The notes under the pieces: generated by a model
Seen by the model: only the letters and a program-made list of their open reading frames with translations
What the model was told of the DNA's origin: nothing
Databases searched by the model: none
Origin: a bacterium
Lineage (GTDB): Bacteria; UBA8248; JACPRG01; G963555815
DNA length: 64,000 nt
NCBI GenBank assembly: GCA_965261595.1
Contig: CBDHDG010000005.1
Coordinates: forward strand, 256,001 to 320,000
Direction: 5' to 3'
Shown here: positions 34,498-38,101 of the stretch, piece after piece
Layout of the letters: every line of letters starts with the position of its first letter
Position numbering within the stretch: the stretch's first letter is position 1
Program-made: the position numbers and the translations under genes

Positions 34498-34596
34498 GTG
34501 GGGGGCGCTTTTTGAAAGGCGCCCCCCCACGCCCCCCCGCAAAACTTTTGTTTCGCGACAAGGGGCGGCTCCCTTGGGGAGCCGCCCCTTGTCGCA
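34498..34596. repeat. Cluster of palindromes downstream of the hydrolase gene
   Basis: GTGGGGGGCGCTTTT-TGA-AAGGCGCCCCCCCAC and GCGACAAGGGGCGGCTCCC-TTG-GGGAGCCGCCCCTTGTCGC. Confidence 0.7.
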
Positions 34597-34847
34597 AGTG
34601 CTTCCTTAAAATCCATTTATCTGTCATTTCGGTTAATCTGTTATTCCGAGCACAGCGAGGAATCGCGCCTTCCCCTCCCCGTTGGATATCCACCCCCCGC
34701 TCAGCCTTCGGATCACAGCGGACTTGAAACCGGCGTAGCGACTGTCTACCTCGTCAAGGGTGAATCGCTTTGGGCTGCCATGGTTGCCCGGTTCGGACCA
34801 TTGGACCGCCCCTGGGTTATTGGACACTCGGGTGAGGGTATTCGACC

Positions 34848-35752
34848 TCATGCGGCCTCCGCAACTTGAGCGAGTTTTTCCTGCCTTGCCTGGGCCGGCG
34901 TTCGGTAGCCGTAGCCCTCGAGAATCCAATGATGGTTGTACAGGTTCTTGAACTCAAGCAGCGCCCACCGCAGTTCCTCTACGGTGGCGAAAGAGCGCAC
35001 CCACAGGAGATTCTCCTTCAAGATGCGGATAAACCACTCACAGTAGCCATTTCCCTCGGGCGCCCGCACGAAGCTGGGCGAACTGGTCATGCCCAGGTAG
35101 GCGATCTCCCGCTGAAAGTCATCGGACAGATAGGCGGGGCCGTGGTCGTGACGAACTTTAAGCCCCTCGGCGACGTCCGCCTCCAAGCCGGCGAAGCGCT
35201 CGGCGACCCCCTGCCGGATCGGCTCCAGGGCCTCGAAGCGGTTGCCGCTCTTGGCCGCATGGATCCCCACGCAGTCCACCGAGCAGTGATCCACCGCCAC
35301 GAACACCGAGGCCACCCCCTCCTCGGTGGTCACCGTCGTCGTCATGTCCGTGCCCCACATTCGGTCGGGCCGCTCGGTGCGGATGGTCCCGTTGTGGGCC
35401 TTGGGACCTCGGGGTTTGCCCACCCGGTGGGGGGCCTGAAGCCCCGCCTCCCGCATCAGGCGACGCATCCGCTCCTTGCTGGTGCGGATGCCCGCGAAGC
35501 GCAGCCTCGCCCACACCTTGCGGTAGCCCTCGCCATGGAAGGGAGAGTCCTCCAGGACCTGCCGGATGTGGCCGAGGAGTTCCGCATCGGTGCACGGGCC
35601 CACAGGGCCGCGCTTATTGGGCGTGGGGCGTTCATGAACGGGGACCGCCTCTCGCCGCCGTTGCGCGTAGACCGTGGAGCGCGCCAAGCCCCAAAGGGCG
35701 CACACCCGCTTCAGGCCGTAGGCTCTGCCCGTGGAGGTGAAGCGGGCCTGAC

Positions 35753-35765
<13 letters not shown>
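34848..35765 (-). CDS. IS3-family transposase OrfB (DDE integrase core)
   Basis: GYRKVWARL, WGTDMT, RHDHG, PEGNGYCE motifs. Confidence 0.9.
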
Positions 35766-37058
<1,293 letters not shown>

Positions 37059-37100
37059 TCAATGCCGACATAGACTTCCTGGGTGTTCATGAAATGGGTC

Positions 37101-37260
37101 TCCCTTCCTTGCGAATCCGGGCTCAAGATGGCCCTAGCGACTGTTCGGGATTCGACTTCCAAATGGATGGGGAGCCTCGCTACGAAACGGTCTCTAAGGA
37201 CCTGGGGCCGGTGCGGTCTCCCGTCCACGTTCTTCCCCTCACCCTCGGGGATAGACCTCC
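37101..37260 (-). ncRNA. IS110 bridge RNA (5' hairpin, target-binding loop, donor-binding loop)
   Basis: Guides ACCGGCCCC (37204-37212) and CGTAG (37180-37184) match the flanks; ACAGTCGCT (37136-37144) and GCAAG (37108-37112) match the element ends; enclosing stems present. Confidence 0.85.
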
Positions 37261-37456
37261 TCATTGTCATGCCCAAAAAAGGCCGCGACAAGGCTTTGTC
37301 CATCAATGCCAAGATTACAAGGGGCCGGTCTCCGTACCGGCCCGTCACACGCCCGCGTGGAGAACGGGGTGTTTCAGCCAGGCGACTCCCTTGCATCGGG
37401 CAATCTATTGAAAGGCAACCAGTTCACCGGCCCATCCGAATGAGGCGGAAAAAGAC

Positions 37457-37488
37457 AAAAAAAAGACCGCGCCATGACGGCGCGGCCC
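37457..37488 (-). terminator. Rho-independent terminator
   Basis: GGCCGCGCC-GTCAT-GGCGCGGTC followed by T8 on the minus strand. Confidence 0.8.
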
Positions 37489-37531
37489 TTGCGGATTCAA
37501 TACACTCGGCTCGGGAGGAAAACGCCCGGTC

Positions 37532-38101
37532 CTACGGAACGTTGCTTCCGTCGCTGATGGGCGGGACGATCCTCCCCTCGATGACGCCGAAATTCCTGGC
37601 GAATGTCAGGTTGGATTTCGGCGGCGGGAACTTCTTGGGCGCGAGGATATCCAGGGTGACGTCAAACGACCCCACCCGGCTGATCCGGCCCTCCACGTCC
37701 CGCGCCCAGATCTTGATGTAGACGTACAGGTCCTGCGTGTTCGAGAGCGTCCCGCTGTGGATGGCGTCGAACGTGCTCAACGTGAAGTGGCCGGAGACCT
37801 CCTTCTCCTCGCCCGGCTTGATCCGGTAATTGCCGAAGGAGACTTCCGCGTAGGGCGGGCTCTCGAAGCTCCAGACGATCTCCTTGAGATCGGCCGCGCC
37901 CGCCTTGACCGAGACGTAGACCGGCAGGTCGTTGGGCGGGACGATCCGCTTCGGCGCGTGCATCAGGACGAGCTTCGGGCCATCGGGCGAGATGATTCGA
38001 CCCTTCCGGATCGTCGTCTGCGCCATCGCGCCCGTTGCGGCGATGGTTATCCAGAGAAAGAAAACCCCCAGCGTAAACGCCCAAGCTTTCCGAGTCGCCA
38101 T
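37532..38101 (-). CDS. Hypothetical exported protein (beta-rich)
   Basis: Signal peptide ending AMA-Q, high-GC3 codon usage, downstream terminator. Confidence 0.65.
   Translation of the reverse strand: MATRKAWAFTLGVFFLWITIAATGAMAQTTIRKGRIISPDGPKLVLMHAPKRIVPPNDLPVYVSVKAGAADLKEIVWSFESPPYAEVSFGNYRIKPGEEKEVSGHFTLSTFDAIHSGTLSNTQDLYVYIKIWARDVEGRISRVGSFDVTLDILAPKKFPPPKSNLTFARNFGVIEGRIVPPISDGSNVP

Follow-up and report, generated by a model that had tools for sequence, protein, structure and literature searches.

The left end of a broken IS110-family element in an uncultured, IS-laden bacterium very probably encodes a bridge RNA of the IS621 type; its architecture is the published one of IS110/IS621, the copy has decayed, and RNA-guided recombination would have inserted it. 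This assignment follows from the covariation of the fold, taken together with guides that track their flanks, a promoter predicted at the junction of the two ends and the pattern of the handshake guides. The element (37321-34737, minus strand) is seated in a REP-like palindrome within the window, i.e. the whole stretch of 64,000 nucleotides that was analysed. The bridge recombinase and bridge RNA of IS621 from E. coli are the subject of Durrant et al. (2024; PMC11208160) and Hiraizumi et al. (2024, PMC11208158; 2026, PMC13626964), and a bridge RNA has been predicted for 85.7 % of IS110 elements in the first of these accounts (PMC11208160). With the element this system described in 2024 gains one more member, a clear but ordinary one and with no new mechanism, and it or its relatives may already be among the predicted bridge RNAs catalogued with PMC11208160. 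As IS621-type were counted 5′ loop strands of 8-9 nt that read like the top strand of the left target or left donor plus core, and 3′ loop strands of 4-7 nt complementary to the core plus the right target or right donor.

The element and its recombinase gene

A coordinate check found the CT core at both boundaries on the minus strand, on which all features of the element named here lie. Its left copy (37320..37321) stands before TGTAT in 71 or more relatives, and the right copy follows the right end ACAGTCG (together 34737..34745, by sequence match). The first letters of the element are TGTAATCTTGG, from 37319, and the last ...GTAGACAGTCGCT, to 34737; outside follows ACGCCGG, the ACG of which (34734..34736) is the right target according to the sequence and to uninterrupted repeat copies. 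The left end (37319-37090) is non-coding and about 230 nt long (229-231), the right end extends about 17-20 nt beyond the stop codon, and long subterminal inverted repeats are absent, a layout typical of the IS110 group. All strings that an earlier sequence-only reading of this DNA had placed on the minus strand were recovered at their positions. An Rfam 15 scan of 34500-37600 with E up to 1 gave no relevant family; the sole two matches, Noro_CRE and P10, were set aside as chance hits.

The recombinase gene starts at 37089. Its 5′ part (36206..37089) comprises the DEDD domain within the first 158 residues (PF01548, E 2.4e-15) and, in a second frame, the Transposase_20 domain (PF02371, E 3.5e-18), as seen from Pfam and from comparison with an intact copy. 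This copy, L009, is located on a public contig of 1778 nt, is 94.5 % identical to the window copy and retains an uninterrupted frame of 316 aa, which is absent in the window. Compared with L009, the window gene has suffered a 16-nt deletion near 36757, resulting in a frameshift, and lacks 6 nt in the region of the LEATG motif, in which G is changed to E. Furthermore, an IS3-family element of 1404 bp with orfA and orfB (34802..36205), flanked by the 4-bp duplication ATGG, is inserted within the last codons of the gene and splits off its C-terminus; the final codons (…VRTGQPWQPKAIHP, stop) are found at 34754..34801. The L009 protein scores 235.8 bits against NF033542 'IS110 family RNA-guided transposase' (cut-off 140) and matches the solved transposases IS621 (E 1.1e-39) and ISCro4 (E 1.1e-41) over its full length.

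The nested IS3 element is itself abundant. It is present in 178 full-length copies of 99.0-100 % identity with 4-bp target duplications, which amount to about 4 % of the 6.17-Mb genome, and in the DNA run X3 its depth is about 1650, compared with 10 for the neighbouring DNA. This copy number looks like the result of a recent, massive IS burst.

Other copies and related genes

A scan of the genome contigs for relatives yielded only four loci. In a protein search of the window's genome no intact cognate recombinase was found; the search returned the window copy and one paralog with two stops. This paralog on contig 7 (L002, G000:C7:423388-426526) is 65-70 % identical, carries in-frame TGA and TAG stops and is flanked upstream by the gene of an IS1595/ISXO2-like transposase and downstream by an orfA of the IS3 type. 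A different IS110-family transposase is also present in the genome in four copies (C6:1023477-1024088, C6:1336460-1337071, C6:1548272-1548883 and C3:35019-35630), which share only about 30 % identity with the C-terminal part of the window recombinase. With this C-terminal part as query, an order-level search of six other genomes gave no match at E <= 1e-30.

The contig of L009 is labelled as part of a Dehalococcoidia MAG. Since a 172-nt flank is shared at 98 % identity with the window's genome (C7:267258-267429), the contig either stems from an organism closely related to that of the window or was wrongly binned. A clean orthologous empty site of L009 was not found in the window's genome: only the distal right flank matches, at this same place, because the whole repeat block is missing there.

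Structure of the left end

The metagenome scan returned 568 relatives, from which 80 loci were kept, and 86 loci were examined including those of the genome. A candidate start of the left end (CTTGT..) occurred once in 71 of them, twice in 5 and not at all in 10. The 76 left ends were reduced to 64 by removing near-duplicates and to 63 by dropping a truncated row (L060), and these were aligned over a 134-nt core. On this alignment the result of RNAalifold is consistent with a hand-adjusted structure, which has 26 pairs in four helices. In the 63 non-redundant relatives 94.0 % of the 1622 cells are paired, against 75.7 % in shuffles; compensatory changes occur in 21 of the 26 pairs, and none of 500 shuffles reached any of the measures. 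Sliding the partners by one to three columns lowers the pairing to 31-51 %. A covariance model built from the alignment recovered seven relatives that had been kept out of it, with 58.7-112 bits. The model R1, which was built with the window sequence included, finds in the window's genome the window copy with 98 bits and the contig-7 paralog with 99.5 bits. A weak match of R1 at C6:1576999-1577088 (29.7 bits) was dismissed, as no IS110 gene lies beside it.

The bridge RNA would be about 200 nt long. Judged by this covariation, a region of 5′ hairpins is followed by two loops, the first target-binding and the second donor-binding. The presumed 5′ part (37233..37311) contains a hairpin at 37291-37262 with a U-run in its loop and a CCCC/GGGG hairpin at 37250-37235, both of which appear only in the window copy's own minimum free energy (MFE) structure; it shows no covariation because it is not conserved in the relatives. 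The extra hairpin at 37262-37291 (GCGGCC-UUUUUU-GGGC, with a U6 loop or run) is missing in most of them, and their left ends are 170-200 nt long. The target-binding loop is closed by helix 1 (5′ strand 37215..37228, 3′ strand 37163..37176; compensatory changes in 12 of 13 pairs, 95 % paired). Within it lies the apical hairpin GGTC-CTTAGA-GACC (37189..37202; helix 2, three of four pairs compensatory). The donor-binding loop has a basal stem, helix 3 of the alignment, made of TCCCG (37146..37150) and AGGGA (37101..37105), and an apical hairpin GGGC...GCCC (37119..37134; helix 4, 97 % paired). Thus the 5′ hairpin, the TCCC/GGGA stem and the apical hairpins GGTC/GACC and GGGC/GCCC of the sequence-only reading are present. 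The stem it had drawn around the first loop exists as well, yet it is longer than proposed (37228-37215 with 37176-37163), and its innermost GC/GC pairs find no support in the alignment. One pair of this stem, 37223/37168, is a C.A mismatch in the window; the A at 37168 is replaced by G in L009 and in the contig of the DNA run X3, which belongs to another study.

Folded as a single sequence, the left end reaches an MFE of -76.5 kcal/mol (z = 0.40) and is no better than shuffles, of which 129 out of 200 do equally well. This result, together with the missing Rfam match, would fit the view that the left end were a mere leader or promoter of the transposase gene and its four matches had arisen by chance or as left-over terminal repeats without any guide role. 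The covariation across the 63 relatives speaks against such a leader. The evidence for the structure is comparative, and the single-sequence fold gives no support alone; in this respect the check by folding that had been proposed lent no support, while the relatives uphold the fold. For the 134-nt core the MFE is -40.7 kcal/mol, compared with -32.4 for the comparative structure. The core MFE retains the closing stem of the first loop and its hairpin, and in it the left and the right target guide pair with each other over three bases. Guides buried in stems had been named as an argument against a bridge RNA; these three bases point in that direction, whereas in the comparative structure the loops are enclosed by stems.

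Guide sequences

The four guides of the window copy have lengths of 9, 5, 9 and 4+4 nt (left target, right target, left donor and right donor). The left target guide (37203..37212) consists of ACCGGCCCC plus an A at the second core position. ACCGGCCCC (37212-37204) is identical to the left flank plus the first core base (37329-37321), so that all 7 non-core positions match and the identity run of 9 is the maximum of the family. This 9/9 identity had been noticed before; the A, where U would be expected, had not. The right target guide UUUCGUAG (37180..37187) contains CGTAG (37184-37180), the reverse complement of CTACG at 34738-34734, and as CGUAG it pairs with the core and ACG. The left donor guide ACAGTCGCT (37144-37136) equals the right end plus core (34745-34737). 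The right donor guide GATT-CG-CAAG (37108..37117) pairs discontinuously with CT-TG-T-AATC of the left end. Its GCAAG (37112-37108) pairs with CTTGT with one G-T, as had been recognized, whereas the pairing as a whole is broken up into GATT..CAAG, in the way published for IS621. The 5′ strands of the loops read like the top strand and would therefore form pairs with the left target's and left donor's bottom strand; the 3′ strands are complementary to the core plus the right target and right donor, with which they would pair.

In composition-preserving shuffles of the 229-nt left end both 9-mers never occurred together (0 of 200000), while the first alone was met 255 times and the second alone 173 times. 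The short strings alone are not significant, with 0.26 (CGTAG) and 0.9 (CAAG) occurrences expected by chance, which would also suit a mere leader; they carry weight only through their position and through comparative data. These data are clearest for the right target guide. Among the 55 loci with a right end, the five positions past the core match the locus' own flank fully in 40, at four positions in 10 and at three or fewer in 5, compared with full matches in 20 of 2930 mismatched pairings. This covariation of guide and flank, proposed earlier as a check, bears out the order of a target loop followed by a donor loop around a CT core, as does the fold of the relatives. Beyond the core, the window site itself matches at 3 of 5 positions and L009 at 4 of 5: the window guide can read up to ACGAAA, of which its site fits ACG only. 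For the left target guide the mean match is 4.98 of 7 in 60 loci, against 3.45 in mismatched pairings, the score being the best of three registers in both sets. Full matches occur in 4 of the 60 loci, including the window copy, and in 6 of 3540 mismatched pairings; 18 of the 60 score 4 or less. The left-target signal in the relatives is modest, weaker than that of the right-target guide. In 40 of 49 loci the left donor guide is identical to the final 7 bases of the element, the right end having been located independently by means of the -35 box, which was found in 49 of 63. The right donor guide of the relatives, (C/T)AT..GCAAG, faces a near-invariant CT-TGTAT, and the donor ACAGTCG-CT-TGTAA that had been read from the window holds.

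In the contig-7 paralog the right target guide matches its own right flank at 7 of 7 positions, and the right donor guide and the left end have changed together (GTAAAAG with CTTTTAC). Its left target guide mismatches the present left flank, which is another IS; the lost fit is probably due to the IS graveyard in which the paralog lies. The joint absence of the 9-mers from the shuffles and the change of guides with their flanks in the relatives both contradict a mere leader, as does the fact that the homologous proteins IS621 and ISCro4 have been solved as bridge-RNA recombinases. The leader was already disfavoured and is hardly credible.

The bridge RNA thus remains the preferred reading, with one peculiarity in its pairing with the core. 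Three guides of the window copy cover CT, and the left target guide covers the first base only. In the relatives the core letters of this guide are CT in 46 loci, CA in 8 (as in the window copy), CG in 4 and CC in 2 (60 loci), and the core of the left donor guide is CC in 32 of 63. For IS621, pairing with both core bases is described as strongly preferred (PMC11208160). According to the 63-sequence alignment, natural guides often mismatch the second core base, and the loop of the window element was used in at least two insertions despite its CA.

The target in a REP-like palindrome

The left flank of the element is a 25-nt palindrome, ACGGGCCGGTACGGAGACCGGCCCC, followed by T on the minus strand. 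This REP-like palindrome (37321..37345) makes up the left target, ACGGGCCGGTACGGAGACCGGCCC plus the core C at 37321, and is part of a repeat unit of about 110 nt. Five uninterrupted copies of the palindrome exist in four loci; the next letters are AC in all five and ACG in three. They read ...CC(G/C)GCCCCT followed by ACAAC, ACGGC, ACGAA, ACATG or ACGAG. Uninterrupted copies of the flank repeat in the genome have the form ...CCGGCCCCT-AC(G/A). With a loose REP pattern 71 copies were found genome-wide, at least 54 of which are followed by AC, and the exact 12-mer CCGGCCCCTACG has 14 genomic sites. L009 sits in a different copy of the repeat, with the same motif as its insertion site (...ACCGGCCCCT|...|CT ACGATG), so that the search for an intact copy suggested earlier was answered. 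The uninterrupted repeat copies and the L009 site therefore point to CCGGCCC-CT-ACG as the target of the element, as had been proposed, and at least two independent insertions used it. The insertion site would lie at the tip of the palindrome.

Copies of the repeat unit (about 110 nt, 86-91 % identical) are located at C7:1179842-1179955, C3:216005-216117 and C6:1041518-1041630 and in the window at 37321-37440. The palindrome is often trailed, some 20-30 nt on, by a second, inverted one (GGGGCGGGTCTCCGTACCCGCCC), an arrangement resembling a BIME-type array.

Occurrences of CCGGCCCCT followed by GATCT, TAACC or TGAGA (39, 34 and 25 copies) were rejected as insertion sites, as they lie inside other multicopy IS elements. 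At least three such mobile elements with these copy numbers and identical 130-nt stretches (on contigs C1-C7, e.g. C2:134385, C2:44604 and C2:274556) surfaced by accident because they contain this 9-mer.

Handshake guides and junction promoter

A dinucleotide just 3′ of each core-binding AG has been described for IS621 as a handshake guide whose partners are positions 7-6 on the incoming top strand (PMC13626964, published in 2026). The sequence-only reading had overlooked these guides; the pattern is present in the window. In the target loop the handshake guide CG (37178..37179) is complementary to donor positions 6-7 (CG), following the concept in PMC13626964, and in the donor loop the G of the guide GA (37106..37107) pairs with target position 7 (C). 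The first handshake base is C in the target loop and finds its partner in donor G7 in 61 of 63 relatives; in the donor loop it is G, with target C7 as the partner in 55 of 60 and two more as A-T. Over 60 loci the mean number of Watson-Crick handshake pairs is 0.50 before and 2.42 after the exchange. The window copy has one pair before top-strand exchange and three after it, the numbers also given for wild-type IS621 (PMC13626964). Such a change from one to three pairs would bias the reaction towards insertion.

A sigma-70 promoter, split over the junction of right end and left end, is predicted and conserved. Its -10 hexamer is TAATCT (37312..37317); TATCTT, TATCTC and TATGTT occur at this position in 24, 15 and 10 of the 63 relatives. 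The -35 hexamer TTGACG (34752..34757) belongs to the right end; joining of the ends places it 17 nt from the -10. The -35 consensus CTTGACa was seen in 55 relatives at a fixed distance, and the box was located in 49 of 63. A junction promoter is known for IS621 (PMC11208160). An excised circle would join the right and left ends and thereby create the promoter TTGACG-17 nt-TAATCT, in which the -10 would depend on the right end for its -35; transcription of the RNA from it may be expected. By analogy to IS621, a tetramer of the DEDD/serine recombinase would then exchange the strands at the CT core. Over 34600-37500, the contigs of three metatranscriptome runs cover the IS3 element only (34802-36206) and a bit of the REP flank and are uninformative on expression of the left end. 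No contig of one DNA run and the three RNA runs joins the right end to the left end over this range; a circle junction was thus not observed, which counts neither for nor against one.

The core mismatch of the left target guide may adjust strand exchange or directionality alongside the handshake guides. That it is such a natural tuning device, or that bottom-strand recognition is looser than in IS621, is rather unlikely, and so, separately, is a guidance of REP-to-REP rearrangements by the RNA of the dead element together with a recombinase supplied in trans.

Decay of the window copy

The recombinase is frameshifted and split by the IS3 element, a pair in the target-loop stem is mutated and the genome yielded no intact cognate recombinase. 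For these reasons the window copy is dead and no longer able to move by itself. The earlier description as a natural RNA-guided recombinase variant is thus right as to the IS621-type system and wrong as to a live element, in view of the 16-nt frameshifting deletion and the nested IS3.

The RNA gene might nevertheless still be in use, a read-through bridge RNA serving a recombinase supplied in trans or being employed by the host for REP-directed rearrangements. Its better preservation would agree with this, with one stem mismatch against the two deletions and the IS3 insertion of the gene; by size alone, however, lesions should be fewer in a short RNA target than in a gene of 950 nt. Another study's DNA run contains the window locus too, with 3 differences over 1154 nt, and read-through transcription is described as sufficient to give a functional bridge RNA for IS621 (PMC13626964). 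A use in trans is opposed by the outcome of the protein search, in which the other IS110-family matches were those of about 30 % identity, and by the R1 model, which finds the window and paralog loci plus one weak match without context only. Continued use is therefore very improbable, and the RNA is best regarded as part of a decayed element.

Comparison with known systems

The element resembles IS621 in its recombinase with DEDD and Tnp domains, a full-length homolog, and, as far as the published accounts describe IS621, in the long left end, the short right end, the CT core and the REP-type target ending in ...CCTACG; the wild-type target of IS621 is the REP end ATCAGGCCTAC (PMC11208160). 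The promoter predicted across the junction, the order of a 5′ hairpin, a target loop that varies and a donor loop that is conserved, the top-strand-like 5′ guides, the complementary 3′ guides with discontinuous right-donor pairing and the one and three handshake pairs before and after exchange likewise agree with the published architecture. In contrast to IS621, the window recombinase is only a distant homolog, its nearest named relative being the ISMno7 family (53 %), the left end, of 231 nt, exceeds that of IS621 in length and has two 5′ hairpins, the left target guide has CA instead of CU, the right target guide has potentially 6+2 nt and the copy is inactive.

The ISMno7-family and unnamed IS110-group elements from soil and aquatic metagenomes, which make up the 63-sequence set, share the RNA architecture (98 bits to R1, a model that contains the window copy). 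They also share the donor ACAGTYG-CT-TGTATCT, the predicted junction promoter and a conserved C before the core in their targets, and are 52-68 % identical to the window protein over the N-terminal 108 residues. The window copy differs from this set in its own target guides, in one extra base of the left-target strand and in TGTAATC for TGTATC.

ISPpu9 and ISPpu10 of Pseudomonas putida, also of the IS110 family, are reported to insert into REPs or into a single conserved intergenic repeat (PMC12288879; bioRxiv 10.64898/2026.03.19.712850). Their hosts and sequences are different, and the likeness is one of description only. Members of the IS1111 group share the recombinase family and the guide principle, their guide being a seekRNA or right-end bridge RNA; according to PMC11208160 it is the right end that carries the RNA, and the subterminal inverted repeats are long, unlike in the window element with its RNA in the left end and a right end of about 20 nt.

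The logic of a bridge RNA could here be read from raw sequence alone, and one more natural guide set is added, with the target CCGGCCC-CT-ACG(AA) and the donor ACAGTCG-CT-TGTAT(C). In a branch that is distant from IS621, the published rules for guides and handshakes gain independent support from comparison across the 63-sequence alignment. L009 is an intact orthologue that could be tested without repair.
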